From NCBI GenBank assembly GCA_037916085.1, contig JBAIYC010000456.1, positions 1 to 34,384 of the forward strand: a stretch of DNA of 34,384 bases, given 5' to 3'. The translations under genes were made by a program, and so were the position numbers. Within the stretch, counting starts at the first letter, position 1. Each line of letters opens with the position of its first letter. The DNA is from Nitrospirota bacterium (GTDB lineage Bacteria > Nitrospirota > UBA9217). This document shows, piece after piece, positions 3,504-21,837 of the stretch. Below the pieces are notes generated by a model that searched no databases, was not told the origin of the DNA, and saw nothing but the letters and a program-made list of their open reading frames with translations.

Positions 3504-3526
3504 CCCATGAACGGCCTGAGGCTCCC

Positions 3527-4692: not shown

Positions 4693-4720
4693 TCGTAGTG
4701 ATCGTGAGGAAGGAGGGAAC

Positions 4721-5290: not shown

Positions 5291-5329
5291 AGATGATCAA
5301 AGAAGTCTCCGCCAGAAGACAGTTTGCAA

Positions 5330-5989
5330 ATGAGTGACACGATACGAAAGATCCGGAAGGACTTCCGTGCAGCATTATCCATGGACCCGGCTGCCACAAG
5401 CAAGTGGGAAGTGGCGCTTACGTATTCGGGGTTCCACGCACTGCTTCTCTCCCGGCTTGCGCACTGGCTGTGGAAACGCCGCGTACCGTTTGTTCCTCGT
5501 GCGTTGTCGCAGTTCGCGCGGTTCCTCACTGGTATCGAGATCCATCCCGGTGCGACGATCGGGGCGGGGCTGTTCATCGACCACGGAATGGGCGTTGTCA
5601 TCGGCGAGACCACCGAGATCGGCGATAACGTCACTTTGTTCCAGGGCGTGACCTTGGGCGGCACGGGAAAACAACGCGGCAAACGTCACCCCACTCTGGG
5701 CAGCCATGTGGTTGTTGGCGCGGGGGCCAAGGTGCTGGGTCCCATCACCATTGGGGACTATGTCAAGATCGGCGCGAACTCGGTGGTGCTCCAGGACGTC
5801 CCGGACCATTCCACGGTCGTCGGCATTCCTGGCAGGATCGTGCGGATCAAGGATGAGCGTGTCGCCGACGAGGCTCTCATGGACCACATTCATATCCCTG
5901 ATCCGATTGCGGACAGATTCATCGATCTTCAGGTTCAGATTGACGCTTTGAAAAAGGAACTGGAGAACATCAAAGAAACGGGACGTTAG
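5330..5989 (+). CDS. cysE: Serine O-acetyltransferase
   Basis: [49 protein letters not shown] hexapeptide-repeat region. Start (ATG 5330) is approximate. Confidence 0.95.
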
Positions 5990-6053
5990 ATCCACAGCAA
6001 GATCGATATTGTCCTTTGCGTGGAGCCGTTCTTTCCCACCGCTCTCATCCTTC

Positions 6054-6479
6054 TTATTCGTTCACGATTCGGTAGCTGTGCGTGATCGTCCCCGCCTTCG
6101 CGAGGGTCGCTCCGACGGAACAGTACTTGTCCAAGGACAGTTCAATGGCCCGTTCGACCGCATCAGCCTGGACGTCCTTCCCCGTGACGACATACTCGAT
6201 GTGGACCTTTCTGTAGATCTTCGGATAGTCCTCTGATTTTTCTCCCTTCACGTTCATCTCGAGCCCGGAAACGGCCTGTCGCTTCTTTCGAAGGATCGAG
6301 ATGACATCCATGCCCGTGCATCCGCCAAAGCCTACGAGCAACAGTTCCATAGGACGGAAACCGCTGTTGTGCCCTCCTGCAGCATCATCGGCGTCCATGA
6401 GGAGGGAATGACCGGAACTTGCCCTTCCGCTGAACTCCATATCCGTTTCTTTTGTCAGCCTTACCTTTGCTTCAACCAT
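6054..6479 (-). CDS. OsmC/YhfA-family protein
   Basis: RPMELLLVGFGGCTGMDV and SLDKYCSVG carry the two conserved Cys; ATG at 6479 preceded by GGAGG. The longer ORF start at 6608 runs through AT-rich non-coding DNA. Confidence 0.9.
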   Translation of the reverse strand: MVEAKVRLTKETDMEFSGRASSGHSLLMDADDAAGGHNSGFRPMELLLVGFGGCTGMDVISILRKKRQAVSGLEMNVKGEKSEDYPKIYRKVHIEYVVTGKDVQADAVERAIELSLDKYCSVGATLAKAGTITHSYRIVNE

Positions 6480-6602
6480 GTTTGTCCTCCCGTGCATAGA
6501 AAGTGATGTGATGATAGCACAAATCCCGAAAATCCATACATGCGTTTTAGGTGATAATGCCAAAAAATACCGCCCCGAATTTTGTGAACGTATATTATTC
6601 AA

Positions 6603-6615
6603 TATCAAAATGTTA
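6603..6615 (+). promoter_or_regulatory. IHF-consensus site 1
   Basis: TATCAAAATGTTA matches WATCAANNNNTTR. Confidence 0.4.
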
Positions 6616-6635
6616 TCTATGGATAGACATCTATG

Positions 6636-6653
6636 TTTGGTATAGTTACCAAA
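6636..6653. promoter_or_regulatory. Perfect palindrome, candidate transcription-factor/enhancer site
   Basis: TTTGGTA-tagt-TACCAAA, about 85-100 bp upstream of the sigma54 motif. Confidence 0.4.
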
Positions 6654-6686
6654 AGAACATCATAATGACAAGATTTGTAATTTATT

Positions 6687-6699
6687 TAACATTCTGATT
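6687..6699 (-). promoter_or_regulatory. IHF-consensus site 2
   Basis: Minus strand AATCAGAATGTTA matches WATCARNNNNTTR; lies between the palindrome and the sigma54 motif. Confidence 0.4.
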
Positions 6700-6736
6700 A
6701 TACAATGAATAAATTGTGTAATTATACAACTGGCAC

Positions 6737-6752
6737 TGGCAATATAATTGCA
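6737..6752 (+). promoter_or_regulatory. Putative sigma54 (-24/-12) promoter facing dsrA
   Basis: TGGCAA-TATAA-TTGCA versus consensus TGGCAC-N5-TTGCW; correct GG-N10-GC spacing, one mismatch. Confidence 0.55.
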
Positions 6753-6856
6753 CACTGATATGTTTCATGTTGTGTTAGTATTCAAACTCAAGAATTACCA
6801 ATAGTTACACAAATCTATCGTGATTAGGTGTTTATGAGACAATAAGTTTTTCTTAT

Positions 6857-6885
6857 TTGACAAAAGAAGTCCTTTGCTGAATACT
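6857..6885 (+). promoter_or_regulatory. Putative sigma70 promoter facing dsrA
   Basis: TTGACA (6857-6862), 17 bp spacer, AATACT (6880-6885). Confidence 0.5.
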
Positions 6886-7186
6886 TCACTACCTCTTAAG
6901 CATAAACATGTGCATTTGCTTTGAGCACCTCTGCATCATTTGTTGCGGCATATCATCTCTTTTTCGACATCCGTGAATATCGCTTCCGCATGACCGACTC
7001 AGCGTGGGAAATGCGGCTTGCGTACTTAATTCATACCATCTGCAGCGAAAGGGGGAGGCCTCATCACGCATATCTGAACACAGCCGTAAGCGATCCCAGT
7101 AATACTCCAGATACGACGCCGATGCAGCGGTTTTTTGCAGCACATCCCACAATTCATTCAGCACAATTCCTGAAGGAGGGTTCCAC

Positions 7187-8365
7187 ATGAGCAAAGATGC
7201 AAAGACACCAATGCTTGACGAGCTCGAAAAAGGTCAGTGGCCGAGTTTTGTGAAAGAGATCAAGAAGGCCGCAAAGAAGAGCAATACGGCACAGGACCTG
7301 CTCGGCATACTGGAGAGATCCTACAAGGACAAGGTCACCCACTGGAAGCATGGCGGTATCGTGGGCGTCCTCGGTTACGGCGGCGGCGTCATCGGCCGCT
7401 ACTGCGACCTTCCTGAAGAGTTCCCCGGTGTGGCACATTTCCATACCGTGCGCGTCAATCCGCCGTCAGCATTCTTCTATACCTCAAAGGCTATGAAAGA
7501 GCTGTGTGACATCTGGGACAAGTATGGCAGCGGCCTCACCAACCTGCACGGTTCCACGGGCGACCTCGTGTGGCTCGGCACCCAGACCGACAAGCTGGAG
7601 CCCATCTTCTCGGAGATCACGGCGAAGGGCTGGGACCTGGGAGGTTCCGGCTCCTGCCTCCGTACCCCGAGCTCCTGCGTCGGCATGGCCCGCTGCGAGT
7701 TCGCGAACATCGACACCATGTCGATCTGCCACGAAATGACCCACGCGTTCCAGGACGAGCTCCATCGTCCGGCATTCCCCTACAAGTTCAAGATCAAGGT
7801 CTCCGGCTGCGCCAACGACTGCACCGCGTCGATCGCCCGCGCCGACCTGTCGATCATCGGCACATGGAAGGACAATATCCGGATCGACCAGGCTGAGGTG
7901 AAGAACTATGCCAAGAGCATGAACATCGCCGAAGAGGTCGTTGGGATGTGCCCGACCAAGTGCATGAGCTTCGACGGCAGCAGCCTGAAGATCAACGACA
8001 AGGACTGCAACCGCTGCATGAACTGCATCAACCGGATGCCGAAGGCTCTCCGCCCTGGCATGGAGAAGGGTGCAACCATCATGCTCGGCGGCAAGGCCCC
8101 GATCGTGACCGGCGCGCTCATGAGCTGGGTCATTGTCCCGTTCATGAAGCTCGAAGCCCCCTATGACAACCTGAAAGACCTGATCCGCAAGGCTTGGGAG
8201 TGGTGGGATGACAACGGCAAGAACCGCGAGCGTATCGGTGAGCTCGTCGACCGCCTCGGCATGCGCTCCTTCCTCGAGGCAACTGGTCTTCCGCCCGTGC
8301 CGCAGATGGTGAAGGCACCGAGGACCAACCCGTACGTGTTCTGGGCACCGGGTGAAGTGAAGTAA
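7187..8365 (+). CDS. dsrA: Dissimilatory sulfite reductase alpha subunit (reductive type)
   Basis: [37 protein letters not shown], siroheme/[4Fe-4S] ligands CVGMARC and [15 protein letters not shown], ferredoxin domain CPTKC/CNRCMNC; AAGGAGG RBS. Confidence 0.98.
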
Positions 8366-8412
8366 TCTCTCACACTACCTATCGAGAATTCTATCAAGGA
8401 GGAAGACCTAGA

Positions 8413-9486
8413 ATGGCTGACAAACCGAAGAGAATAACGGACCTTGGTTCACCCGATTATCATAAATTCCTTCCCCCGGTGATCGCGAAGAACTACGGGA
8501 AGTGGAAGTATCATGAAGTCATCAACCACGGAACGATGAAGCACGTCTCTGAGACGGGTGACGAACTCTACACCGTCCGCATGGCCACGCCGCGCCTCGT
8601 GAGCACGGACTTCATTCGCGAGATGTGCGACATCGCGGAGAAGTACAGCGGCGGCCATCTCCGCTGGACGACCCGCCACAACGTCGAGTTCTTTCCCGAG
8701 AAGGGACAGGTGGACGCCCTGGTCGCCGACCTCAAGAAGCGTGGCCACCTCGTGGGCGGCATCGGCTACGGTATCAGCAACGTGGTGCATACGCAGGGCT
8801 GGGTGCACTGCCACACGCCCGCGACCGACGCCTCCGGCGTCGTGAAGGCGGTCATGGATGAGCTGCATGAGTACTTCACGACCAAGAGCCTTCCGGCACG
8901 CGTCAGGATCGCGCTCGCCTGCTGTCTGAACATGTGCGGCGCCGTGCACTGCTCCGACATCTCGATCCTCGGCATCCACCGCGTGCCTCCCAAGGTGAAC
9001 GAGGCGACGCTCGCGAACCAGTGCGAGATCCCGACGACCATCGCCTCCTGCCCCACGGGCGCCATCAGCCCGAACCCGGCGACGAAGGCCGTGAAGATCA
9101 AGGAAGAGCGCTGCATGTACTGTGGCAACTGCTATACGATGTGTCCTTCTCTCCCGATCGCAGATGGCCACGGAGACGGTATCTCCATCTGGGTGGGCGG
9201 CAAGGTGTCGAACGCCCGCGGCGTACCCCGCATGTCGAAGCTGGCGATCCCGTTCCTCCCGAATAATCCGCCGCGCTGGCCAGAGGTCGTGAAGGCCGTG
9301 AAACACCTCGTCGAGGTCTATGCGGCGAACGCGAAGAAGCACGAGCGCATGGGCGAGTGGATCGAGCGGATCGGGTGGGAGCGGTTCTTCAAGCTCACCG
9401 GCCTGCCGTTCACGTATCAGCACATCGACGACTTCACCTTTGCGCGCGATACGTTCCGGATGACCCCCACCTTCAAGTGGGAATAG
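8413..9486 (+). CDS. dsrB: Dissimilatory sulfite reductase beta subunit
   Basis: [75 protein letters not shown]. Confidence 0.98.
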
Positions 9487-9497
9487 TGTGTTGTGAT

Positions 9498-9531
9498 GCC
9501 GGCCCCGGTGGTTCGACCGGGGCCGGTTTTT
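9498..9531 (+). terminator. Intrinsic terminator-like hairpin between dsrB and dsrD
   Basis: CCGGCCCCGGT-ggttcg-ACCGGGGCCGG (11 bp perfect stem) followed by TTTTT. Confidence 0.7.
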
Positions 9532-9569
9532 GCGCTCCAGCAACCTAATCTTTCTACCAGGGGGAAATC

Positions 9570-9800
9570 ATGGACGCCCAGGAACTGCAGAACAAGATAT
9601 ACGAATATGTTCAGACGAACATGGGAAAGAAGAAGCTGAAGGCCGGGGACATCAAGAAGACGATGGTCGCTGCGGGAGCCACTGACGAAGAGGTGAAGGC
9701 CGCGATCCGAGAACTGGTCGACGGCGGCAGGCTGGTCTATTCGTACTTCGGCGGCAGCTTCATCGAAATTCCTCACAAAGAAGGTTCCGCCAATCCCTAG
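9570..9800 (+). CDS. dsrD: DsrD-like small winged-helix protein (non-canonical)
   Basis: 76 aa, directly after dsrB; DsrD-like layout (KIYEYV..GKKKLK..D...VKAAIRELVDGGRLVY) but YSYFGGSF instead of the usual YWSSGST. Confidence 0.75.
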   Translation: MDAQELQNKIYEYVQTNMGKKKLKAGDIKKTMVAAGATDEEVKAAIRELVDGGRLVYSYFGGSFIEIPHKEGSANP

Positions 9801-9802
9801 GA

Positions 9803-11197
9803 ATGGCGATTCTTCCGAGACTGGTTATCTCAGCAGTGCGGGGAGGGCTTGGCAAGACAACGCTCTCCCTCGGGATCATTGCAGCATGGCGGAGCTGGGG
9901 CAGGATTGTTGTCCCCTATAAGAAGGGTCCGGACTTCATTGATGCTGGATGGCTCGGGGCTTCGGCGGGGAGATCCTGCCATAATCTCGATCTTTTTCTG
10001 ATGGAAGAGGAGACCATCCGCAGATCCTTTGTCCGGTACAGCAGAGGGGCGGATGCGGCGGTCATCGAGGGCAACAGGGGTCTCTTTGACGGCGTCGACG
10101 AGTCGGGCGCGTACAGTACGGCGCGGCTCGCAAGGGTTCTCGGCGCTCCTGTGATTCTGATCGTCGACTGCACCAAGTCGTCCAGTACCGTCGCAGCGGT
10201 CGTGCTCGGCTGCCGGCAATTCGATACGGCAGTGACCATCGGCGGGGTCGTTCTGAACAACGTGGCGTCCGGGAGGCAGGAATCGGTCATCCGCAAGGCC
10301 ATCGCGCAGAGCAGCGGCGTCCCGGTGGTGGGTGCCGTTCCCAGACTGCGGCGGGGTGAATTCCCCGAGCGGCACATGGGGTTGACACCTTTTCATGAGC
10401 ACCCCGATGTTGAGTCCGCCATTGCCGCGTCGGCGGCAGTTGCGAAGCAGTATCTTGATCTTGATGGGCTTTGGCGAATCGCAGGGGAGGCCGCCCCGCT
10501 CCGTCCGTATCAGGATGCGGCTTGGGATCGAGAATCCGGGGACCGGCCGCTTATCGGTGTCATCCGGGACCGGGCCTTCCAGTTCTACTATCCGGAGAAC
10601 CTGGAAGCTCTCGAACGTGCAGGTGCGGATGTACTAGAGATCAATGCGCTGAGAGACCGGCTTCTTCCGGACATCGACGCGCTCTATATTGGCGGTGGTT
10701 TCCCGGAGACGCAGGCCGCAGAGCTGGCCGCCAACACGTCCTTCTGCAGTTCGCTTCGGGCCGTTGCGGAATCCGGGCTCCCGGTCTACGCGGAGTGTGG
10801 GGGGCTCATCTATCTGGGAAGGAGCCTTCGCGTCGGGGATGTGGTCCATCCCATGACATCGGTGCTTCCGGCGGATTTCATTCTGGAAAAGAGACCGCAG
10901 GCGCATGGCTACACGGTCCTTGAAGTAAGCGGTGCCAATCCGTTCTTTGACAGGAACAGCACGGTGCGGGGCCACGAGTTCCATTATTCGCGGATCGTGA
11001 ACATCGACGAATTGCCTGGCATGGTCTTTACCATGCGCCGCGGAAAAGGTATCGACGGCACCCGGGACGGAGTGGTATATAAAAACGTACTGGCGACGTA
11101 CACCCACATTCACGCCTTGGGAACGCCCCAATGGGCGGCCGCGATGGTGTCGCGTGCGAGAGTATTCCGGGAGCGGAAGATCAAGAAGGTGCAGTAA
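9803..11197 (+). CDS. dsrN: Siroheme amidase DsrN (cobyrinate a,c-diamide synthase homolog)
   Basis: GGLGKTT, KKGPDFID, IEGNRGLFDG, ERHMGL, AFQFYYPEN, GGGFPE, YAECGG, GHEFHYS; position within the dsr cluster. Confidence 0.92.
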   Translation: MAILPRLVISAVRGGLGKTTLSLGIIAAWRSWGRIVVPYKKGPDFIDAGWLGASAGRSCHNLDLFLMEEETIRRSFVRYSRGADAAVIEGNRGLFDGVDESGAYSTARLARVLGAPVILIVDCTKSSSTVAAVVLGCRQFDTAVTIGGVVLNNVASGRQESVIRKAIAQSSGVPVVGAVPRLRRGEFPERHMGLTPFHEHPDVESAIAASAAVAKQYLDLDGLWRIAGEAAPLRPYQDAAWDRESGDRPLIGVIRDRAFQFYYPENLEALERAGADVLEINALRDRLLPDIDALYIGGGFPETQAAELAANTSFCSSLRAVAESGLPVYAECGGLIYLGRSLRVGDVVHPMTSVLPADFILEKRPQAHGYTVLEVSGANPFFDRNSTVRGHEFHYSRIVNIDELPGMVFTMRRGKGIDGTRDGVVYKNVLATYTHIHALGTPQWAAAMVSRARVFRERKIKKVQ

Positions 11198-11550
11198 TGA
11201 GGGAAGAGGGAAAGTCGGCCCCTAGGTGCCCGTTCTGCGGTTCTGATCTGATGCGGCCATCGGAAATAACCGTTGGCGACGCGGAGCAATCGACAGGCGG
11301 CACCTGCTCGTGCGGGGCCCTCTTCCTGGTGGATCCGACAGGCAAAAACGTCGGCACCATGATGGCTCAGGCCCTCAACATGATGACGGAAGAGCTCAAG
11401 AAGGGCATCGGCGAACTGGTCCCTGATGAGGATTATCAGGATGCAGTCCTCAGCTACGACTGGAGGACGCACCGCTCAACGGGGGTCAGCCAAGGCTATA
11501 TGGACGGCTACGGCAGGCTCTATATCTTCAAGATCAGGAAGAACCCCTGA
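11197..11550 (+). CDS. Hypothetical protein with CxxC...CxC putative metal-binding motif
   Basis: ATG 11197 overlaps the dsrN stop (TAATG); 117 aa with CPFC and CSCG; fills the gap to dsrC. Confidence 0.8.
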   Translation: MREEGKSAPRCPFCGSDLMRPSEITVGDAEQSTGGTCSCGALFLVDPTGKNVGTMMAQALNMMTEELKKGIGELVPDEDYQDAVLSYDWRTHRSTGVSQGYMDGYGRLYIFKIRKNP

Positions 11551-11692
11551 CCGGCTGCGGCAGCGGATGCGAAGAGATGCAGCAGCATTCGGCAAGCGAC
11601 CGTATTGATCGTGCATCGATCATGCGATTGTCATTAGGACACAGAGACGCGTATGAAACGCGTCCGTGATATTTCAGAAAGGGGAAAGAAAC

Positions 11693-12028
11693 ATGGGAAC
11701 GATTACAGTAAAAGGCAAGACGATTGAAGTGGATGAGGACGGTTTCTTGGCCAACCTGGACGATTGGAACCTGGATGTGGCCAACTATTTTGCCGAGGTG
11801 GAAGGCATCGCGATGACCGAGCAGCACTGGGAAGTCGTCAACTTCCTTCGCGACTACTACAAGCAGTATCAGATCGCTCCGATGATCAAGATCCTGGTGA
11901 AGGAGATTGGCAAGAAGCTTGGTCCGGACAAGGGGAACACCAAGTACCTCTACGAGCTCTATCCGGGCGGACCGGCAAAGCAGGCCTGCAAGATCGCCGG
12001 TCTTCCGAAGCCGACCGGCTGCGTATAG
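11693..12028 (+). CDS. dsrC: Sulfur carrier DsrC
   Basis: VDEDGFL..DW, HWEVV.FLR.YY, C-terminal CKIAGLPKPTGCV with both cysteines (Cys-X10-Cys), which marks a true DsrC rather than TusE. Confidence 0.96.
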   Translation: MGTITVKGKTIEVDEDGFLANLDDWNLDVANYFAEVEGIAMTEQHWEVVNFLRDYYKQYQIAPMIKILVKEIGKKLGPDKGNTKYLYELYPGGPAKQACKIAGLPKPTGCV

Positions 12029-12151
12029 ACTTCTAAACACCTGCGTTGCTGTCATGCTTGGGGAGCGGCGTGTGCTTCTGACCCGGCTTGCGGGATTCGT
12101 CTCGGGACAGCCGCAGGGTACTCATTCATCTGTTGAGGAGGAGCTGGCAGC

Positions 12152-12337
12152 ATGATCATGGTAATGGTTGACAAGAACAAATGCGACGGCGACGGCACCT
12201 GCGTCAATGTCTGCCCCCAGCAGGTCTTCAAACTCGAGGGCAGCAAGGCGGAGCCGGTCAATATGTCCGAATGCATCAATTGCCAGACCTGTGTGGAGAA
12301 CTGCCCACAGCAGGCGATTACGGTGCAAGAGATGTAA
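12152..12337 (+). CDS. Dicluster ferredoxin (7Fe/8Fe type)
   Basis: CDGDGTCVNVCP (CxxDxxCxxxCP) and CINCQTCVENCP; GGAGGAG upstream. Confidence 0.93.
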   Translation: MIMVMVDKNKCDGDGTCVNVCPQQVFKLEGSKAEPVNMSECINCQTCVENCPQQAITVQEM

Positions 12338-12359
12338 ACAACACATGCTTCAGGCAGGA

Positions 12360-12394
12360 AGGGGATAGTTGATGAAATTATCCCCTCTTTTTTT
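12360..12394 (+). terminator. Intrinsic terminator-like hairpin after the ferredoxin
   Basis: AGGGGATAGTT-gatga-AATTATCCCCT (one G-U pair), then C and seven T. Confidence 0.7.
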
Positions 12395-12426
12395 CTCTTA
12401 ACTCACTATCGCAGGGAGGTGATTCT

Positions 12427-12726
12427 ATGAAATTGGCCGCTTTCTTGAGTGACTGGAGAAGGACGGAGGACTCGCTTGAGCGTATCAAGGCGGAGAAGCT
12501 GGGCGTGATCCTTGTCGGGAACGGGATCTACCATGCTGTGATCAAGGAAGGCGGGAAGGACTCCCCAGTGCTGTCGAAGGCAGGAGCCACTTTCTACGCG
12601 CTTTCCGATGATCTGGAGACCCGCGGATACACCGCGGCGAACGTGAATTCGAAGGTGAAGCTCATAAGCTACGGTGACATCGTCGATCTCATCATGAGCG
12701 AGTACGAGAAGACCGCGTGGCTGTAA
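12427..12726 (+). CDS. dsrH: DsrH/TusB-family sulfur relay protein
   Basis: 99 aa; ILVGNGIY, FYALSDDLETRG, ISYGDIVDL...W pattern of DsrH/TusB; no cysteine. Confidence 0.8.
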   Translation: MKLAAFLSDWRRTEDSLERIKAEKLGVILVGNGIYHAVIKEGGKDSPVLSKAGATFYALSDDLETRGYTAANVNSKVKLISYGDIVDLIMSEYEKTAWL

Positions 12727-12765
12727 TTCTTCAGGGGATACTCATTTTAGACAAGGGAGGACCAA

Positions 12766-13125
12766 ATGGCTGAACTTACGATTGGTGTTTTCTCATCCCT
12801 CGTTGGTTCCATGTCGCTTGATTTTTCTTTCAAGCTCGCCGAAGCGGCGATGGCCAAGGGCCACAAGGTGAACATGTGGCTTTCCGGAAATGCGGTGATG
12901 ATGGCAAAGAAGGGCCAGAAGGCATTCAAGGATTATTCGCACAACGAGAAACGAATGAAGGAACTCATCGGTAAGGGCATGGAGATTACGGTGTGCGAGG
13001 CCTGCGCCGAGGCAAGAGGCTATCACAAGGAAGATACGCCGGAAGGAATGAAGCGCGCCAGCATGGACTGGTATCTCGCGAAGACCGTCAAGACCGACCG
13101 TCTTTTCCACATCGGAGGTGAGTAA
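12766..13125 (+). CDS. dsrE: DsrE/TusD-family sulfurtransferase
   Basis: LAEAAMAKGHKVNMWLSGNAV; ITVCEACAEARG carries the Cys at the active-site position, within a CxxC. Confidence 0.8.
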   Translation: MAELTIGVFSSLVGSMSLDFSFKLAEAAMAKGHKVNMWLSGNAVMMAKKGQKAFKDYSHNEKRMKELIGKGMEITVCEACAEARGYHKEDTPEGMKRASMDWYLAKTVKTDRLFHIGGE

Positions 13126-13538
13126 TGGGCGCAGTCAAATTGTTGTTCGTTGTCCAGAGGCCGCCGTACAAGAGCGAGAACCCCCGTCTGGCCCTCACCC
13201 ACGCCATCGCGAGCCAGACTGCCGAGATTTACATGGATGAAGGGGATTCCGTTGTACCCACTGTCGTGCTCGTGGGCGACGGCGTGCTGAATGCGGTCAA
13301 GAATCAGCAGGCAATGAAGCTCTACGGGGTCACGAGCACCGAGAGCCACATTAAGAACAGCCTACTCATCGATATGCCGATCTGGGTCTGCAAGGAGGAT
13401 ATGGCGCGCCTGGGGCTCAAAGAAGACCAGATGATCACGGACGCCGAGGAACTGGGCGCCGAGCTCAAGACGAAGTTCGTGTCCTACGCGGATATCCAGA
13501 AGGAAATGGAGTCAGTAAAACACTTGCTGTTCTTCTAG
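13125..13538 (+). CDS. dsrF: DsrF/TusC-like (DsrE-superfamily) protein
   Basis: LLFVVQRPPYKSE, VVLVGDGV..AVKNQ, IWVCKEDMARLGL; TAATG coupling to dsrE. Confidence 0.72.
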   Translation: MGAVKLLFVVQRPPYKSENPRLALTHAIASQTAEIYMDEGDSVVPTVVLVGDGVLNAVKNQQAMKLYGVTSTESHIKNSLLIDMPIWVCKEDMARLGLKEDQMITDAEELGAELKTKFVSYADIQKEMESVKHLLFF

Positions 13539-13564
13539 CCGCAGGGGGGGAGCGGTTTCAAACG

Positions 13565-14080
13565 ATGACGCTGAAGGATGTGCTCAAACAAAAGAAACCT
13601 GCTATCGTACAGAAGTGGTTTGATGCTGCCCTGGCAAATTACCACAGGGACGCCCAGGGGCTGTTGCGGAAGACCAAAGCGCAGTTCACGAATCCCGTCG
13701 GCTTCGACCTGGCACAGGGGCTTGACGGGCTCTTCGATGCCCTCCTGCAGGGAATGATCTCTGACAATGTCTCGACGTTCCTCGATGCGATCGTCAGGAT
13801 CCGTGCGGTCCAGGATTTTGCACCATCCGAGGCACTGGCGTTCCTGCTGCGCATCAAACAGATCGTGCGGGAAGAGCTGGATCAGGAAACGCTCGCTGAG
13901 GCCCGTATCCTGGACGCATTAGCTGCGTTTGACGGCGCTGCCGACGACCTGGCTCTCTATGCCTTCGACCTGTACATGCGCTGCCGGGAGAAGATCTACG
14001 ATCTCAAGGCTCAGGAGGCGCGGAACCTGACGTACCGGCTGCTCCAGAAAGCGCAATCGATCGAAGAAAAGAAAGAATAA
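13565..14080 (+). CDS. dsrT: DsrT (RsbRD N-terminal domain protein)
   Basis: IVQKWFD...Y, FTNPVG, IVRIRAVQDFAPSEAL.F, AFDLYMRCREKIY; directly precedes dsrM. Confidence 0.92.
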   Translation: MTLKDVLKQKKPAIVQKWFDAALANYHRDAQGLLRKTKAQFTNPVGFDLAQGLDGLFDALLQGMISDNVSTFLDAIVRIRAVQDFAPSEALAFLLRIKQIVREELDQETLAEARILDALAAFDGAADDLALYAFDLYMRCREKIYDLKAQEARNLTYRLLQKAQSIEEKKE

Positions 14081-14130
14081 CGCAAGTCACGACGGCAGTA
14101 TCTTGATCTCTTACGAAACGAGGTAACGCT

Positions 14131-15126
14131 ATGAAAGCCATCGTATCATTCATTGCAGTGCTCCTGCTGGTGGCGATCGGCTACATGGGGGGGAGTGCGG
14201 GGAGCGCGACGAGGTTCCTGCTCGGCGTGGTCGTCCCGTATTCGGCGTTCGCGATCTTCGTCGTGTTCATGATCGTGCGCATCCTGAAGTGGGCCAGTTC
14301 GCCGGTGCCGTTCCGCATCCCGACCACGACGGGGCAGCAGAAATCGCTGCCGTGGATCAAGGACAGCAAGATTGAAAGTCCGTCCACGGGCCTGGGCGTC
14401 ATCGTCCGTATGGCGTTGGAGGTCCTCGCATTCCGCTCGCTCTTCCGGAACCTCAAGACACAGACATACGAGGGCGGCAGGCTCGCATATGGCGAGGCCA
14501 AGTGGCTCTGGATGGCCGGTCTGGCCTTCCACTATTCCTTCGCCATCATTCTGTTCCGCCATCTGCGGTTCTTCATCGAGAAGGTTCCTGCATCCGTCCA
14601 GCTGGTCGAGGGTCTCGACAGTTTCCTGCAGATCGGCGCGCCGCTGCTCTACCTGACCGACGTCGCTTTGCTTGCCGCAGTGACCTATCTGTTCATACGG
14701 CGCGTCGCTCTCCCGCAGGTCAAGTACATCTCGCTGATCGCCGATTATTTCCCGCTTTTCCTGATTCTCGGGATCGGCGTGACCGGTGTGCTCATGCGGT
14801 ACTTCACCAAGACCGATATCGTGAGCGTGAAGATGCTTGCCATGGGCCTGATCAGCTTCAGTCCGACTGTGCCTGAGACGATTGGCCCCATGTTCTTCAC
14901 TCACCTCCTCCTGCTCTCGGTCCTGTTCGCCTATTTCCCCTTCAGCAAGCTGGTCCACATGGGCGGCGTGTTCCTGAGCCCCACGCGGAACATGGCGAAT
15001 AACAATCGCATGAAGCGGCACATCAACCCCTGGAACTATCCGGTTCATGTCCACACCTACGAGGAGTACGAGAACGATTTCCGGGACAAGATGAAAGAAG
15101 CCGGGCTTCCGGTAGAAAAGGAGTAG
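14131..15126 (+). CDS. dsrM: DsrM membrane cytochrome b (NarI family)
   Basis: Multiple TM segments; PVPFRIPTTTGQQKSL, FRSLFRN, FHYSF..RHLRFF, YFPFSKLVHMGGVFLSPTRN. Confidence 0.96.
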   Translation: MKAIVSFIAVLLLVAIGYMGGSAGSATRFLLGVVVPYSAFAIFVVFMIVRILKWASSPVPFRIPTTTGQQKSLPWIKDSKIESPSTGLGVIVRMALEVLAFRSLFRNLKTQTYEGGRLAYGEAKWLWMAGLAFHYSFAIILFRHLRFFIEKVPASVQLVEGLDSFLQIGAPLLYLTDVALLAAVTYLFIRRVALPQVKYISLIADYFPLFLILGIGVTGVLMRYFTKTDIVSVKMLAMGLISFSPTVPETIGPMFFTHLLLLSVLFAYFPFSKLVHMGGVFLSPTRNMANNNRMKRHINPWNYPVHVHTYEEYENDFRDKMKEAGLPVEKE

Positions 15127-15128
15127 CC

Positions 15129-16748
15129 ATGTCAAAACTTCCGAAACCAGCTGAACTGGCGAAAGTGTCGTACAACGTACCGGCTACCGACTGGATGAAT
15201 ACGCCCGTCGAGTTCAAGCCCGGCATGTACTGCCACGGCTCGAAGCCCAAGAGCCTGGAGATTGTCGGATTTCCGAATCCGCGCGACTGGAGGCCTGCGG
15301 ACGCCGACTGGAAGCTCCCGGAGAACTGGAAAGAGATCATCATCGAGGGAATCGCGGACAGGCTCAAGAAGTACCGGTCTTTTCGGCTCTTCATGGACAT
15401 CTGCGTGCGCTGCGGCGCCTGCGCCGACAAGTGCCATTTCTTCATCGGCACCGGTGACCCCAAGAATATGCCGGTGCTCCGCGCCGAGCTGATCCGCTCG
15501 GTCTATCGGAAAGAGTTCACGAAGGCCGGCAAGATCCTGGGCCGGATGGCAGGGGCCCGGGACCTGACCCTCGACGTGCTCAAGGAGTGGTGGTACTACT
15601 TCTATCAGTGCACCGAATGCCGCCGCTGCTCGGTCTTCTGCCCCTACGGTATCGACCAGGCGGAGATTACCATCATCGGCCGAGAGCTGCTCAACCTGCT
15701 CGGTCTGAACATCGAGTGGATTGCGGGTCCTGTGTCGAACTGCTACATGAAGGGCAATCACCTAGGCCTCGAACCGCACACCATCGTCGGCAATCTCGAC
15801 TATATGCTGGACGACATCGAGACCGTTACCGGCAAGCGGATCAAGCCGAGCTTCAACCGAAAGGGCGCTGAGATTCTTTTCGTGACGCCGTCGGGCGACC
15901 TTTTCGCGGACCCTGGCACCTACACTTGCATGGGCTACCTCATGCTCTTTGAGGAACTGGGCCTGGACTACACCTGGAGCACCTATGCATCAGAAGGCGG
16001 GAACTTTGGTTTCTTCACCTCCAACGAGATGGGGAAACGCCTCAACGCCAAGATCTACGCGGAAGCCAAGCGGCTCGGCGTAAAATGGATCCTTGGCGGC
16101 GAGTGCGGCCACATGTGGCGCGTTCTCACGCAGTACATGGACACCTGGAACGGCCCGGCCGATTTCCTCGAGGTCCCGAAATCGCCCATAACGGGCACCG
16201 TCTTCGAGAACGCAAAGTCCATGAAGATGGTCCATGTCGCGGAATTCACCGCCGACCTGATCAGGAACAACAAGCTGAGGCTCGATAAGTCAAGGAACGA
16301 TCATCTTACGGTCACCTGGCACGATTCCTGTAACGTTGCGCGCGGCATGGGCATGCTGGAGGAGCCGCGGTATGTGCTTCGGAACGTGGTGAACAACTTC
16401 GTCGAAATGCCGGAAGACACGATTCGCGAGAAGACCTTCTGTTGCGGCAGCGGTACGGGCTTGAACGCGTCGGAGAACATGGAAATGCGCATGAAGGCCG
16501 GGTTCCCCCGGGCGAACGCGGTCAAGTTCGTCAAGGATCACTACGGTGTCAACATGCTTGCCAATGTCTGCGCCATCGACCGTGCCTCGCTCAAGGCCCT
16601 CATGGACTACTGGAATCCCGGCGTCGGCGTGTGCGGTCTGCATGAACTGGTGGCGAACGCCCTGGTCATGAAAGGGGAGAAGGAGCGTACGACCGACCTG
16701 AGAGGCGAGCCCCTTCCGTCCGCCGCTGCGAAGGAGGAAAAAGCCTAA
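15129..16748 (+). CDS. dsrK: DsrK Fe-S protein (HdrD-like)
   Basis: CVRCGACADKC, CTECRRCSVFCPYGID, ASEGGNFG, GECGHMWR, HDSCNVAR, FCCGSG, VCAIDR. Confidence 0.97.
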   Translation: MSKLPKPAELAKVSYNVPATDWMNTPVEFKPGMYCHGSKPKSLEIVGFPNPRDWRPADADWKLPENWKEIIIEGIADRLKKYRSFRLFMDICVRCGACADKCHFFIGTGDPKNMPVLRAELIRSVYRKEFTKAGKILGRMAGARDLTLDVLKEWWYYFYQCTECRRCSVFCPYGIDQAEITIIGRELLNLLGLNIEWIAGPVSNCYMKGNHLGLEPHTIVGNLDYMLDDIETVTGKRIKPSFNRKGAEILFVTPSGDLFADPGTYTCMGYLMLFEELGLDYTWSTYASEGGNFGFFTSNEMGKRLNAKIYAEAKRLGVKWILGGECGHMWRVLTQYMDTWNGPADFLEVPKSPITGTVFENAKSMKMVHVAEFTADLIRNNKLRLDKSRNDHLTVTWHDSCNVARGMGMLEEPRYVLRNVVNNFVEMPEDTIREKTFCCGSGTGLNASENMEMRMKAGFPRANAVKFVKDHYGVNMLANVCAIDRASLKALMDYWNPGVGVCGLHELVANALVMKGEKERTTDLRGEPLPSAAAKEEKA

Positions 16749-17179
16749 TGAAGATCTATAACGGTGGAACCATATTCATGCTGATCGCCGTTTTCCTGGT
16801 AATCGCCCTCTTTCCGTTCTACAACAACGTGGGGAAGGTGAATGCCAAGCCTGAGCCGAAGACGGACACCCCCGAGATCCTGAAATATCAGCAGGAGCAC
16901 GGCGGCAAGAAGGAGTGCGTCGAGTCGAAGGAATGGATGCGCGGCGAGCACATGCAACTCCTCAACCAGTGGCGCGACTCCGTGGTCCGCGACGACAACC
17001 GCGTCTATGTGAGCAACACGAACCACAATCCATTCAATATGAGCCTTCAGAACGGTTGCATGAAGTGCCACTCGAACAAGAAGAAGTTCTGCGACGAGTG
17101 CCACAACTACCTGTCGGTGAAGCCGTACTGCTGGGATTGCCACATCCAGCCCGTGGAAAAGGAGGAGGGAAAATCATGA
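16748..17179 (+). CDS. dsrJ: DsrJ triheme cytochrome c
   Basis: N-terminal hydrophobic anchor; CVE...MR.EHM.LL..WRD.VVR; three CxxCH (CMKCH, CDECH, CWDCH). Confidence 0.95.
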   Translation: MKIYNGGTIFMLIAVFLVIALFPFYNNVGKVNAKPEPKTDTPEILKYQQEHGGKKECVESKEWMRGEHMQLLNQWRDSVVRDDNRVYVSNTNHNPFNMSLQNGCMKCHSNKKKFCDECHNYLSVKPYCWDCHIQPVEKEEGKS

Positions 17180-18021
17180 GCATGGATAGGAGACAGTTCC
17201 TGAAGTACTCCGGCATCGCCTCCATCCTTGGGTTTGGCGCGTCGGTCGCATCTGCAACGAACCTGATCACGGGGAAGCAGTTGCTTCCGCCGCAGGTGAG
17301 CATGAACAAGGAGGCACTTCGGGCCAAGCGCTGGGCCATGGTCGTGGATATGAGCAAGTTCAGGACCGAAGAGGACTTCCAGAAGACCATTAGCGCCTGC
17401 CATACGATCCACAATGTGCCTGACTTCCGCAAGCCCGATGGGAGCCCCGACAAGAAGTTCGAGGTCAAGTGGATCTGGAAGACGACCTACGAAAAGGCCT
17501 TTCCTGGCATGGAAAGCCAGTACCAGGGTGAGCACGTGAAGGACATGCCCTTCATGGTGCTCTGCAACCACTGCACCAACCCGGCGTGCGTTCGGGTTTG
17601 CCCGACCAAGGCAACTTACAAGCTGCCTGACGGCGTAACCATGCAGGATATGCATCGCTGCATAGGCTGCCGGTTCTGCATGGCAGCCTGCCCATACGGG
17701 GCGAGGAGCTTCAACTGGATCGATCCCCGCAGGGCGCCGAACCTCGATCCTGCGAAGGGCGGCAAGGTGAATCCCGAATATCCCACCCGCACCAAGGGCG
17801 TGGTCGAGAAATGCACCTTCTGCACCGAGCGTTTGGCGGTCGGCAAGATGCCGGCCTGCGTCGAGGCTGCCCCGGCAGGCGCGATGCTCTTCGGCGACCT
17901 GGAAGACCCGAACTCCGAGATCCGGAAGATCATCGGGGAAAAACTCACGATCCGCAGGAAACCGGAGCTGGGAACTGGGCCGGCGATCTACTACCTGATC
18001 GGAGGTGGCGAACATGCTTGA
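17176..18021 (+). CDS. dsrO: DsrO periplasmic Fe-S protein
   Basis: ATG 17176 (ATGA overlap with dsrJ); Tat motif DRRQFLK; CNHCTNPACVRVCP, CIGCRFCMAACP, KCTFC. Confidence 0.95.
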   Translation: MSMDRRQFLKYSGIASILGFGASVASATNLITGKQLLPPQVSMNKEALRAKRWAMVVDMSKFRTEEDFQKTISACHTIHNVPDFRKPDGSPDKKFEVKWIWKTTYEKAFPGMESQYQGEHVKDMPFMVLCNHCTNPACVRVCPTKATYKLPDGVTMQDMHRCIGCRFCMAACPYGARSFNWIDPRRAPNLDPAKGGKVNPEYPTRTKGVVEKCTFCTERLAVGKMPACVEAAPAGAMLFGDLEDPNSEIRKIIGEKLTIRRKPELGTGPAIYYLIGGGEHA

Positions 18022-19186
18022 GAAAGCACTGGAAGGCAGCAAGAAGTACTGGGCGTGGGTGTTCTTCCTCGGCATCTTCGCCCTGAGCGGCACTTACTGG
18101 TACATCCGCCAGTTCAATGAAGGACTGGGTCTCACCGGCATGCACCGGGACGTGTCCTGGGGTCTCTACATCGGCCAGTTCACCTTCCTGGTCGGCGTTG
18201 CGGCCTCGGCCGTGATGCTTGTGATCCCCTATTATCTTCACGACTTCAAGAAGTTCGGCAAGATCGTGATCCTCGGCGAGTTCCTGGCCATCGCGGCGGT
18301 CACTATGTGCATCCTCTTTATCTTCGTGGACATGGGGCAACCGATCCGCATCATGAACGTTATCCTGCACCCCACGCCGAACTCGGTCATGTTCTGGGAC
18401 TCCGTGGTGCTCTCCGGCTACCTCTTCATCAATGCGCTGGTCGGCTGGGTGACCCTGGGCTCGGATAAGAAGGGCGTGCCTCCTCCAAAGTGGATCAAAC
18501 CCTGGATCTACCTCTCGATCCCCTGGGCCATCAGCATCCATACGGTGACGGCGTTCCTTTACTCGGGCGTCCCAGGCCGTCACTTCTGGCTCACGGCGGT
18601 CATGGCTGCCCGGTTCCTGGCCTCGGCATTCGCCGGCGGTCCGGCGCTGCTCATCATCCTTGCGCTGATCGTTCGCAAGGTGAGCAAGTTCGACGCGGGC
18701 AAGGAGCCTATCCAGGCGGTGAGCCGCATCGTAGCCTATGCCATGTTCGCGAATGTCTTCCTCCTGGGCCTCGAGTTCTTCACGGCGTTCTACAGCGGCA
18801 TCCCCGGTCACCAGCATCCTTTTATCTATCTCTATAAAGGGCTGGAAGGCCACAGCGAGCTTGTCCCGCTCATGTGGACGTCGTCGATCCTTGCGGCCAT
18901 ATCGCTGGTCATGCTCTGGGTCCCAGCGGTACGCCGGAACGAAGGGTCGCTCGTTCTTGCCTGCATCATGCTGTTCGCGTCGCTCTGGATCGACAAGGGC
19001 TTCGGCCTCATCATCGGCGGTTTCGTGCCGAACCCCTTCGAGGAAGTTAACCCCTATTGGCCGACCTATCCCGAGACGATGATTACTATTGGCGTGTGGG
19101 CGGTCGGGTTCCTGGTGCTCACGTTCTTGTACAAGATTGCCATCTCGGTGCGGGAACAGACAGCAGGAGTGGAAATCGAGCACTAA
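18014..19186 (+). CDS. dsrP: DsrP integral membrane protein (NrfD/PsrC family)
   Basis: MLEKALEG, TGM.RDVSWGLYI.QFTFLVGVAASAV, SIPWA.SIHTVTAF, ARFLASAF, WIDKG. Confidence 0.95.
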   Translation: MLEKALEGSKKYWAWVFFLGIFALSGTYWYIRQFNEGLGLTGMHRDVSWGLYIGQFTFLVGVAASAVMLVIPYYLHDFKKFGKIVILGEFLAIAAVTMCILFIFVDMGQPIRIMNVILHPTPNSVMFWDSVVLSGYLFINALVGWVTLGSDKKGVPPPKWIKPWIYLSIPWAISIHTVTAFLYSGVPGRHFWLTAVMAARFLASAFAGGPALLIILALIVRKVSKFDAGKEPIQAVSRIVAYAMFANVFLLGLEFFTAFYSGIPGHQHPFIYLYKGLEGHSELVPLMWTSSILAAISLVMLWVPAVRRNEGSLVLACIMLFASLWIDKGFGLIIGGFVPNPFEEVNPYWPTYPETMITIGVWAVGFLVLTFLYKIAISVREQTAGVEIEH

Positions 19187-19212
19187 GCGTGCTTTACTGA
19201 ACAACCCCCATG

Positions 19213-19247
19213 AAGGCCCACCTCGACACAGGGTGGGCCTTTTTTTT
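19213..19247 (+). terminator. Intrinsic terminator closing the dsr cluster
   Basis: AAGGCCCACCT-cgacaca-GGGTGGGCCTT followed by a T run. Confidence 0.85.
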
Positions 19248-19272
19248 GGCCGCAACTATGCTCCATTCCCGT

Positions 19273-19301
19273 TTGACTTCACCGGGGGGATAGTTTATTA
19301 T
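19273..19301 (+). promoter_or_regulatory. Putative sigma70 promoter
   Basis: TTGACT (19273-19278), 17 bp spacer, TATTAT (19296-19301); GAGG RBS and ATG at 19323. Confidence 0.65.
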
Positions 19302-19322
19302 CAGCCGTACATAGAGGACAGC

Positions 19323-20378
19323 ATGCAGAACATCTCATCGTTCAAAGAAGGCGACTGGGTTGACGAGACCTATCTCGTCGTTGGAAAGACGATCTCCATA
19401 GCCAAGAACGGCGTTACCTACCTCTCTGTGAAACTCTCGGATAAGACCGGCGAGATCGACGGGAAGTTGTGGGACAATGCCGAGGAGATCGCAAGACGCT
19501 TTGAGCGCGAGGACTTCGTACGGGTCAAGGGCGTTGCCGCCAACTATCAAGGCCAGATGCAACTGAAGATGAAGGGCCTGGAGAAGGTCGATGATGCCAA
19601 GGTCGAACTGGCGAATTTCCTGGAAACGTCGCAGCGCGACCCTGAGGAGATGGTCAGGGAACTCGTAGGCGCCGCGGCAAGCCTCACGAACGTCCACCTG
19701 CGGCAACTCCTACAGGCGTTCCTGAACGACAAGGCATTTATGGAATCCTTTCGGCGTGCGCCAGCAGCGAAGACCCTTCACCACAACTATGTCGGCGGCC
19801 TCCTCGAGCATATCGTCGAACTTATCGCGCTCTGCCGCGACGTGGCGAGACACTTTCCCGGCATTGACGTGGAACTTCTGACGATTGGCGCCTTTCTTCA
19901 CGACATTGGCAAGGTGCGTGAGCTATCGGTGCGGAAGTCCATCGAGTATACGACGGAAGGCCGGCTTCTGGGTCACATTTCCCTGGGCTACGAGATGCTT
20001 GTCGAGAAGATCGATGCCATTGGCGGATTCCCGCCCGAGCTGGCAATGCTGCTCAAGCATATCGTGCTGTCCCACCACGGGGAATACGAGTTCGGATCAC
20101 CGAAGCGGCCAAAGATCCAGGAGGCGATCATCGTCAATTATCTCGACGACCTTGCCGCCAAGATTGGCAATTTCCGGTCGATCCTGAAGAAGGAAAACGT
20201 CGGCGAGGGGGATTGGACGGGCTACAACAAGATGCACGAACGGTACCTCTATCGTCAGGCTTCCTATGCGGACGAAGAGAAACCGTCTGGTACGGGAAGA
20301 CCGGCCGGAACAGGACCGGCGAAGAAAAGATCGTCCGGTGGTCAGGAGGGGACCGGAAGCCTGCCCCTCGATATTTGA
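19323..20378 (+). CDS. 3'-5' exoribonuclease YhaM/Cbf1 family (OB-fold + HD domain)
   Basis: L.DKTGEIDGKLWD OB-fold; PAAKTLHH...GGLLEH, LHDIGK, GHI, HHG.YEFGSP, YLDDL. Confidence 0.9.
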   Translation: MQNISSFKEGDWVDETYLVVGKTISIAKNGVTYLSVKLSDKTGEIDGKLWDNAEEIARRFEREDFVRVKGVAANYQGQMQLKMKGLEKVDDAKVELANFLETSQRDPEEMVRELVGAAASLTNVHLRQLLQAFLNDKAFMESFRRAPAAKTLHHNYVGGLLEHIVELIALCRDVARHFPGIDVELLTIGAFLHDIGKVRELSVRKSIEYTTEGRLLGHISLGYEMLVEKIDAIGGFPPELAMLLKHIVLSHHGEYEFGSPKRPKIQEAIIVNYLDDLAAKIGNFRSILKKENVGEGDWTGYNKMHERYLYRQASYADEEKPSGTGRPAGTGPAKKRSSGGQEGTGSLPLDI

Positions 20379-20428
20379 ATCCGAGAAACTTCTCGAACCA
20401 ACGTCTCCGGTGAACGAAAAAACAGAAC

Positions 20429-21334: not shown

Positions 21335-21412
21335 CGGAGTACATTCATCATTTAGCGATGGGGCGTTCCGTCACACGTTCCGTTCGCTGCCTGCTTGATT
21401 GCCGGTGTTGCC

Positions 21413-21694: not shown

Positions 21695-21795
21695 TAAGGG
21701 CAGACAGATCATATTTCATAGATGCAATAAGTTTTAACCAATTGATAGTTTGATGATTTCTATCGATGTTCAGCGAGTTGATCATTACTTTGACC

Positions 21796-21824: not shown

Positions 21825-21837
21825 TAGCCATAGAGAA

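Follow-up and report, generated by a model that had tools for sequence, protein, structure and literature searches.

A divergent DsrEFH-type gene trio inside a reductive-type dsr cluster of an uncultured Nitrospirota bacterium, a candidate sulfur relay to DsrC

By the gene-content rules applied to metagenome-assembled genomes (MAGs), dsrD marks a reducer, and dsrEFH together with dsrL marks an oxidiser. What, then, does a cluster do that violates both rules? The stretch of DNA analysed here, called the window throughout, is a 34,384-nucleotide (nt) contig (JBAIYC010000456.1, assembly GCA_037916085.1) from an uncultured Nitrospirota MAG (3.17 Mb, 510 contigs), and its lineage is such a case: a trio of DsrH-, DsrE- and DsrF-like genes (H-E-F) lies within a dsr cluster of reductive type in which no dsrL was found. 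We consider it probable that H-E-F is a DsrEFH-type persulfide relay that adds a sulfane-sulfur input to a reductive-type Dsr system, for oxidation or disproportionation. This reading follows from homology, conserved cysteines, linkage to tusA, yedE and dsr genes, and two characterised precedents (PMC3397948; PMC13293266; papers are cited by PMC number).

The cluster comprises sixteen open reading frames (ORFs), all on the + strand, that span 7187-19186 in the order dsrA-B-D(like)-N-orf-C-fdx-H-E-F-T-MKJOP (ORF list and translations), and thus is the one same-strand dsr cluster, with the gene order, that the original prediction had described. Its genes, with sizes in amino acids (aa), are:

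7187..8365, +, dsrA, dissimilatory sulfite reductase alpha, 392 aa (TIGR02064, 562.9 bits; cut-off 392.85)
8413..9486, +, dsrB, sulfite reductase beta, 357 aa (TIGR02066, 496 bits; cut-off 341.5)
9570..9800, +, dsrD-like small winged-helix protein, 76 aa (Pfam DsrD, 18.2 bits; gathering score 24.2)
9803..11197, +, dsrN, CobB-type a,c-diamide synthase, 464 aa (NF002204, 424.7 bits; named from its cluster position)
11197..11550, +, conserved ORF with a CxxC...CxC pattern, 117 aa from an ATG overlapping the dsrN stop (tblastn)
11693..12028, +, dsrC, 111 aa from an internal ATG (TIGR03342, 165.7 bits, cut-off 53.5; PF04358, 159.1 bits)
12152..12337, +, 2x[4Fe-4S] ferredoxin (fdx), 61 aa, two 4Fe-4S motifs (PF00037, PF12838)
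12427..12726, +, DsrH-like subunit, 99 aa, cysteine-free (PF04077, 42 bits)
12766..13125, +, DsrE-like subunit, 119 aa, Cys77 and Cys80 in a CExC motif (PF02635, 53.1 bits)
13125..13538, +, DsrF-like subunit, 137 aa, Cys89 (PF02635, 36.7 bits)
13565..14080, +, dsrT-like, 171 aa (PF14361 RsbRD_N, 69.7 bits, the sole match; named from its position)
14131..15126, +, dsrM (NF038037, 526.3 bits; cut-off 300)
15129..16748, +, dsrK (NF045796, 733.1 bits; cut-off 400)
16748..17179, +, dsrJ (NF038038, 165 bits; cut-off 100)
17176..18021, +, dsrO, start placed at an MSMDRRQFL twin-arginine motif (NF045797, 281.9 bits, cut-off 200; the match begins at residue 88 of the long ORF)
18005..19186, +, dsrP (NF045798, 479.1 bits; cut-off 350)

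The arrangement is real and no accident of assembly, since gene order and location of H-E-F are conserved in 43 of 49 loci from independently assembled MAGs of named relatives; these 43 concordant assemblies rule out a chimeric contig. The remaining six loci are cut by a contig end or fall below the 60% coverage filter.

Orthologues of E, F and H were aligned from 19 genomes outside the window's family. The E residues Cys77 and Cys80 (CExC) are invariant (21/21 sequences), as is F Cys89 (17/17 sequences), and the mean column identity of the three proteins across families is 67-73%. E Cys77 aligns with Cys78 of Allochromatium vinosum DsrE, the sulfur-binding residue from which sulfur is transferred to DsrC in vitro (PMC3397948). 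H has no conserved cysteine column among 20 sequences, and the window H has no cysteine at all. The E and F genes overlap by 1 nt. Profiles were also built from canonical dsr-linked E, F and H proteins of three in-phylum families (f2, f3 and f6), and hhalign paired the subunits one-to-one (E, 97.4% probability and 28% identity; F, 93.6% and 28%; H, 95.4% and 32%); a local tblastn segment reaches 37% identity to the canonical form over 72 residues. In these canonical proteins the E segment reads VVCVAAAKRRG, H has an invariant Cys18, and F has Asp at the position of Cys89.

Comparison with solved structures points the same way for H, whose profile has A. vinosum DsrH (2hy5_C, E 2.1e-7) as its best PDB match, with TusB (2d1p_C) also among the matches. 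The E AlphaFold (AF2) model (predicted local distance difference test, pLDDT, 87.6) has as top folds YchN (1jx7), a Syntrophomonas DsrE-family protein and DsrE (2hy5_A), with TusD (2d1p_A) also among the fold matches; its template-modelling (TM) scores against 2hy5_A are 0.79 by query length and 0.73 by target length. Sequence and profile searches of the PDB with F gave no useful match, and DsrF was reached through the fold search only (AF2 model pLDDT 69.4; top match 2hy5_B, E 5.9e-6). In a three-chain complex model F scored 0.79 against E + H, the best control scoring 0.39 (the mark for this score is reached by 58/80 solved complexes and 2/110 mismatched pairs), with partner pLDDT of at least 90 and at least 92% of contacts shared between runs. 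The model supports an H-E-F heterotrimer; because DsrEFH (2HY5) and TusBCD (2D1P) complexes have already been solved, the score indicates likeness, not binding. From sequence comparison, H-E-F is most likely a divergent, largely Nitrospirota-restricted DsrEFH lineage.

E has its nearest homologues (65-97% identity) in Nitrospirota and Thermodesulfovibrionales MAGs and in Candidatus Magnetoovum, and a homologue search with a distant E returned MAG names only. H-E-F forms a unit in 19 of 20 diverse loci (19 genomes, other families), the twentieth holding just an additional copy of E. Immediately after F, 17 of these 19 H-E-F loci encode an 82-aa TusA homologue that has a CPYP motif; a YedE transporter gene follows tusA in one locus, and a ferredoxin homologue adjoins the H-E-F unit or dsrP in 11/19. 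At 10 diverse loci dsr genes lie within a 20-kb stretch, in three arrangements (after dsrP-fdx and convergent; after dsrP-fdx and co-directional; once directly upstream of dsrA). The original prediction had named an unconserved position in the cluster as a result that would speak against it. This objection is not borne out: linkage to dsr and tusA recurs across lineages, though the exact position varies.

Phyletic distribution was surveyed in 401 genomes of the phylum, of which 222 have some E-like match and 157 a strong one (E<=2e-27, hand count); 202/401 were scored dsrA-positive at E<=1e-60. Strong E orthologues occur in 150/202 dsrA-positive and 7/199 dsrA-negative genomes (hand count), figures that describe the sample and are no test because related genomes are not independent. 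In 52 genomes dsrA occurs without the trio. In one genus with dsrABD, whose genomes measure 1.5-2.0 Mb and are in several cases closed, dsrA occurs in 14/14 genomes and the trio in 1/14, and since 13 of the 14 do without it, the trio is dispensable for a core dsrABD-type system.

The sulfite reductase of the cluster is of reductive type, and its DsrAB groups with Nitrospirota that have a D-like gene. Window DsrA matches Archaeoglobus fulgidus DsrA (541 bits) and Desulfovibrio vulgaris DsrA (516 bits) in the PDB. A maximum-likelihood tree of concatenated DsrA and DsrB (38 rows, 750 columns, LG+G4) was rooted on the MAG's own very divergent second copy; its references are in-phylum clusters typed by gene context, without named Proteobacteria, Allochromatium, Desulfovibrio or cable-bacterium sequences. 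The reference families f2 and f6 have an oxidative context (EFH-C-AB-L or N-AB-C-MK-L-EFH, no D), f3 has EFH-AB-D-L, and f16 and f28 have ABD without the trio. Window DsrAB falls in a 28-tip clade with 100% support that holds 25 trio-bearing tips, two of f16 and one of f28; f3 and f26 are sister to it with 69% support, and the oxidative-context DsrAB of f2 and f6 form a separate clade with 100% support. An oxidative placement, which the original prediction had given as grounds for abandoning it, was thus not found. Its reading of a DsrA motif as reductive also separates the groups in the alignment: WKHGG...IGRY is present in all 10 displayed DsrA that lie outside the oxidative part of the tree (a D-like ORF was identified for 8/10) and W[LKQ]-G...IAR[YF] in the oxidative-context DsrA (n=3). 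Scoring above curated cut-offs and lying apart from the oxidative-context enzymes, window DsrAB classes by sequence as reductive bacterial-type. The DsrAB of named relatives has been placed on the reductive bacterial branch, and these organisms have been treated as likely sulfate reducers (PMC5812927; PMC11033732); the available text of both papers makes no mention of their H-E-F genes.

The MAG has a second, very divergent dsr set, divided between the contig ends C425:29-1234 (-) and C450:6316-7860 (-). It comprises a dsrA (318 bits, below the cut-off, and 36% identical to a canonical DsrA), a dsrB (377 bits) and a DsrC-like protein with the C-terminus ...CKLAGLPKPPHC. Two dsrA matches occur in a few relatives too, and contamination is possible for the MAG's second copy.

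The DsrC of the window cluster ends in CKIAGLPKPTGCV, with both cysteines kept. A dsrD-like ORF stands directly after dsrB, where a DsrD had been predicted, but its Pfam DsrD score is below the gathering score, and PDB 1ucr matches it with E 0.45 only. Its size is that expected of a DsrD. A homologous ORF was detected in 28 of the 29 loci examined and, where its position was inspected, lies downstream of dsrB; 12 of 15 aligned relatives match Pfam DsrD at E<=0.01, and the window protein is 46-47% identical to the ORF after dsrB in the genus without the trio. On the strength of the 28/29 loci and the 12/15 matches, the reported lack of dsrD in most Thermodesulfovibrionia is probably a sensitivity artefact.

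For dsrL, model NF009410 (cut-off 516) scores the protein encoded after dsrD in f3 at 597 bits. With these queries no dsrL was found in the window or the 86%-complete MAG (best MAG scores 392 and 268 bits), and no protein exceeded the cut-off in the 64 genomes of the window's family, 32 of which have a completeness of 90% or more and a contamination of 5% or less; the predicted lack of dsrL is borne out to that extent. The 392-bit candidate is NfnB, beside an NfnA-like gene, and the 268-bit candidate is a GltD-like fusion in a glutamate-synthase context; a search via Pfam Fer4_20 led to both. Near-cut-off GltD/DsrL-like proteins of the family (~700 aa, 450-469 bits) lie beside metF/metV (read by eye) in the two loci listed, L116 and L118 (relatives G024 and G095), and were rejected as DsrL on that account; mis-annotation as dsrL would be easy.

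If these parts work together, we infer the following about how sulfur is passed on, in which direction, and what the ferredoxin does. H, E and F would form a heterotrimeric (or hexameric) persulfide carrier; a TusA-type protein would load sulfane sulfur onto DsrE Cys77, and the penultimate cysteine of DsrC, whose gene lies two genes upstream, would receive it from there. Reductive-type DsrAB/DsrMKJOP would in this way become accessible to zero-valent sulfur (persulfide, polysulfide, S0). From there, reverse-running DsrAB could oxidise loaded DsrC to sulfite, with AprAB/Sat carrying it onward to sulfate, as sulfur oxidation or as the oxidative half of disproportionation; to judge from the gene neighbourhood, the electrons might exit via the cluster ferredoxin and DsrMKJOP instead of DsrL. 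Alternatively, DsrMKJOP could reduce loaded DsrC to sulfide. In the window's family the relay genes would have moved into the dsr operon, between dsrC-fdx and dsrT, leaving tusA elsewhere in the genome. A bolder version of the proposal takes H-E-F as a third DsrEFH lineage (CExC, a catalytic-looking F Cys, Cys-free H) that a widespread Nitrospirota family of soils and aquifers has wired without TusA or DsrL into a bidirectional, ferredoxin-coupled Dsr module, through which 'sulfate reducers' would oxidise or disproportionate sulfur, for example with NarG and nitrate; this we regard as speculative and rather doubtful.

Several results weigh against a persulfide relay. H, E and F pass Pfam DsrH/DsrE yet fail the NCBIfam TusB/D/C-DsrH/E/F equivalogs (H 44.9 < 49.2, E 24.3 < 89.25, F 31 < 94.15). 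A. vinosum DsrH depends in vivo on its Cys20 (PMC3397948), whereas the window H has no cysteine, and a Leu of window-type H aligns with Cys20 of 2hy5_C. Because of the missing cysteine and the failed cut-offs the trio is not canonical DsrEFH, and the DsrEFH assignment of the original prediction stands in part: the DsrE active cysteine and a nearby two-cysteine DsrC agree with it, and the H subunit and equivalog scores do not. The E profile finds YchN (1.4e-5) ahead of DsrE (0.011) in the PDB. No tusA or yedE adjoins H-E-F in the window or its family, where dsrT follows F instead; 9 of the 19 diverse H-E-F loci have no dsr gene within 10 kb; and the trio occurs without a dsrA match in seven genomes, four of them at least 96% complete. 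The phyletic association of trio and dsrA is confounded by shared ancestry, and the MAG itself is 86% complete with 4.6% contamination. Reverse operation of reductive-type DsrAB is unproven at the enzyme level (PMC13293266, PMC8794893). What the analysis shows for this lineage is homology, conserved cysteines, synteny and phyletic linkage, and the relay function is inferred from these.

Could the trio instead serve the reductive pathway only, as a chaperone or buffer for DsrC trisulfide or persulfide, or as a feed of S0 or polysulfide for reduction by DsrMKJOP (sulfur respiration)? All dsr partners look reductive in type (the D-like gene, dsrT and the DsrAB clade), dsrL was not found, and named relatives in this group of the phylum are read as sulfate reducers (PMC5812927). 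Against this, both characterised systems transfer sulfur from DsrE to DsrC and not back (PMC3397948, PMC13293266), and the dsrABD genus manages without the trio in 13/14 genomes; the tusA/yedE linkage suggests import of sulfane sulfur, though that is compatible with reduction and oxidation alike. We judge a purely reductive role unlikely. A further step down in probability is that H-E-F is a decaying or neofunctionalised remnant of canonical DsrEFH, left from a mixed D+EFH+L ancestor and no longer a sulfur relay. The lost H cysteine, the missing dsrL, the identity of only 28-32% to canonical subunits and the retention of EFH-AB-D-L in the sister group f3 would all fit such a history. Yet the columns are conserved across families at the 67-73% given above, the E and F cysteines are invariant, all ORFs are intact, the tusA linkage is kept in 17/19 loci, and fold and interface are predicted with confidence; purifying selection on the cysteine-bearing active site therefore favours a working sulfur carrier, and we hold decay to be improbable.

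Least probable of all, and by our estimate very much so, is a TusBCD-type relay for tRNA 2-thiouridine or other biosynthetic sulfur traffic whose proximity to dsr is chance or shared regulation. Some database sources do name E 'tRNA 2-thiouridine synthesizing protein D', TusB and TusD are among the PDB matches, and 9/19 diverse loci do not adjoin dsr genes. But all three proteins miss the TusB/C/D equivalog cut-offs widely (NF010035, 33.9 < 104; NF001238, 25.2 < 79; NF001237, 19.1 < 92), the adjacent DsrC has two cysteines, like dissimilatory DsrC, and the trio is built into the dsr operon throughout the window's family. Moreover 150 of 157 trio carriers have dsrA, and carriers make up only 7 of the 199 dsrA-negative genomes; a housekeeping function should not track dsrA. 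On these grounds the tRNA-thiolation reading is rejected.

How far, then, does the proposed persulfide relay resemble systems already described? It shares with DsrEFH type I (A. vinosum, 2HY5) three adjacent genes for DsrE-fold subunits with one-to-one E/F/H profile homology, the DsrE active-site cysteine and a two-cysteine DsrC encoded nearby, and the E/F/H sizes are similar (119/137/99 aa in the window, about 130/132/101-102 aa for the 2hy5 chains). It differs in gene order (E-F-H there, H-E-F in the window), in the E motif (CExC instead of the CVAA of in-phylum canonical E), in an invariant F cysteine where canonical F has Asp, in the cysteine-free H, in its failure of the curated equivalog cut-offs, and in its company of reductive-type dsrAB, a D-like gene and dsrT with no dsrL found. 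TusBCD of Escherichia coli (2D1P) has the same fold family and heterotrimer architecture, with TusD Cys78 as the equivalent active site; the window trio stands apart from it in its dissimilatory sulfur context, its failed equivalogs and a distribution that tracks dsrA. E. coli YchN (1JX7), for which we know of no function, is the best single-sequence and structural match of E and has a CxxC at the active-site position; 1jx7 consists of six copies of one chain, whereas E shares a conserved operon with two other, different subunits.

The closest published relative is DsrEFH type II, for which TusA to DsrE to DsrC transfer was demonstrated in vitro in 2026 in an organism with reductive DsrAB (PMC13293266). 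Type II co-occurs with reductive dsrAB in cable bacteria, Desulfobacterota and Nitrospirota, and its 'subtype 1', mostly from Nitrospirota, is the subtype nearest type I (PMC13293266). Like type II, the window trio has low identity to type I (below about 30%) with fold and active cysteine kept, stands with reductive dsrAB in one operon (its carriers in the phylum having dsrA in 150/157 cases), and is followed in other families by tusA (once yedE), as in the published synteny (PMC13293266). Unlike type II, its subunits are of type I size, its active cysteine is at 77 instead of 67 (PMC13293266), tusA and yedE are missing from the window, and its F and H do not resemble those of a second, yedE-linked trio in the same MAG. 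At that second locus (C282:8063-10079, -) yedE precedes a DsrE-like protein of 101 aa and two ORFs (92 and 62 aa), the YTD / DsrEFH type II layout with no tusA between. Compared with the window trio by hhalign, its E aligns at 94% and its F- and H-like proteins at 6% and 1%. The C282 type of E is found in 115/401 phylum genomes and in 52/63 family genomes, so most relatives carry both systems. In this comparison the C282 trio served as a proxy for type II. The chances that the window trio belongs within type II subtype 1 (PMC13293266) are judged roughly even.

Genomes with both dsrD and dsrEFH were reported between 2018 and 2024, Nitrospirota included (PMC6018805, PMC11406059), in agreement with the co-occurrence mentioned in the original prediction. 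Two of its statements are overtaken: that no mechanism was known, given the in vitro transfer in type II, and that the system was undescribed, given that DsrEFH-like transferases with reductive DsrAB are in print (PMC13293266). The idea that such genes signal a sulfur-oxidising capacity of 'sulfate reducers' is likewise already published. The mixed dsrD+dsrEFH+dsrL clusters resemble the window in having a D-like gene and an EFH-type trio in one dsr cluster, but their EFH is canonical, with the H cysteine, lies upstream of dsrAB and always comes with DsrL, which was reported in all the published mixed genomes (PMC11406059). As no DsrL exceeds the cut-off in 64 family genomes, the window lineage is distinct from these. 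The in-phylum mixed cluster f3 has a DsrA 60-66% identical to that of the window, and its loci (L108, L109, L114, L115) read dsrC-MK ... dsrEFH (canonical) - HEAT-repeat gene - dsrAB - dsrD-like - DsrL-like - rubrerythrin-like - nfnAB - tusA, the HEAT-repeat and rubrerythrin-like labels being read by eye. In the literature available, largely as partial text, no paper was found that treats H-E-F within reductive dsr clusters as a type of its own; a single sentence in PMC11033732 is the one related remark. Nor was a description found in that literature of the H-E-F lineage with its cysteine pattern, or of its placement inside the dsr operon in the absence of tusA and dsrL.

Of the sulfur genes that the original prediction proposed to look for elsewhere in the genome, sat, aprAB, qmo and tusA are present in the MAG, as aprBA-qmoAB, sat and eight TusA homologues, together with narG. 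NarG (C97:407-3955, 1500 bits) is above its cut-off and a distant NrfA-like multihaem protein (C377:2981-4096, 153 bits) is under it; the two are possible electron sinks for sulfur oxidation. Two non-identical aprA-qmoA-qmoB copies (C473 and C194), each cut by a contig end, could reflect a duplication or two strains binned together. A third E-F-H set lies on the overlapping contigs C431 (about 3864-4193) and C311 (about 235-1307 and 1371-2600). In its DsrE-like ORF an in-frame TGA, possibly encoding selenocysteine, stands exactly where the active cysteine would be expected (RVDI-TGA-TGC); the ORF is followed by a 117-aa F-like protein, a 93-aa H-like protein and an SQR-like flavoprotein (92.9 bits, type III SQR selenoprotein model). 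C431 also carries selD and ArsR-type regulator ORFs (both read by eye) and a TusA-DsrE fusion.

Within the cluster, the ORF at 11197-11550 has no match in Pfam or NCBIfam and is found between dsrN and dsrC in 46/49 close loci and in five diverse loci of other families (tblastn), and a dsrT-like gene lies upstream of dsrM in each lineage examined. One of the 49 close loci (L082), on a contig titled as a Betaproteobacteria MAG, also bears the Nitrospirota-type cluster, with proteins 84-97% identical; mis-binning of the contig is the probable cause, gene transfer being less likely. A consensus scan, the sole basis for these features, gave the following terminator-like hairpins:

12360..12386, +, weaker, between fdx and H, 11-bp stem followed by a T run
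19212..19242, +, strong, closing the cluster, 12-bp stem with 7 GC pairs and a T run
9509-9525 and 11646-11664, weak, after dsrB and before dsrC

This layout hints that transcription may be divided into separately regulated units, namely dsrAB, D-N-orf, C-fdx and H-E-F-T-MKJOP. Contigs from soil RNA libraries cover 11999-12336 (338 nt, 2 mismatches) and 13383-13639 (257 nt, 0 mismatches, at the F/dsrT junction). They give a weak hint of expression, because DNA can be present in such libraries and the contigs are without transcript structure; most of the cluster, including 12382-13209 (H and E), has little or no cover in the four RNA-library contig sets, which is uninformative.

The flanks (15-6608 and 19089-34153) hold, taken jointly, a sigma-54 response regulator and an inositol-monophosphatase-family protein among housekeeping genes, which include ispD, ispF, cysE, an OsmC-family gene (- strand), a YhaM-like nuclease, ftsY, a rarA-like gene, RNase Y, dxs and atpD (- strand). 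No mobile-element genes were seen among the flank ORFs scanned. Ahead of dsrA, around 5000-8000, the sequence is richer in AT (GC about 0.50).

For the named relatives, all MAGs, the titles suggest aquifers and groundwater as the source, and the sequencing runs in which the window stretch occurs bear soil or rhizosphere labels. The lineage mostly escapes standard models, its D-like and E-like proteins being below curated cut-offs. The cysteine pattern of the trio is a natural experiment on the role of the DsrH cysteine in canonical DsrEFH. If the relay does load DsrC, sulfide or S0 could be recycled to sulfate in soil and aquifer habitats, which would bear on cryptic sulfur cycling and on the interpretation of dsrAB surveys.

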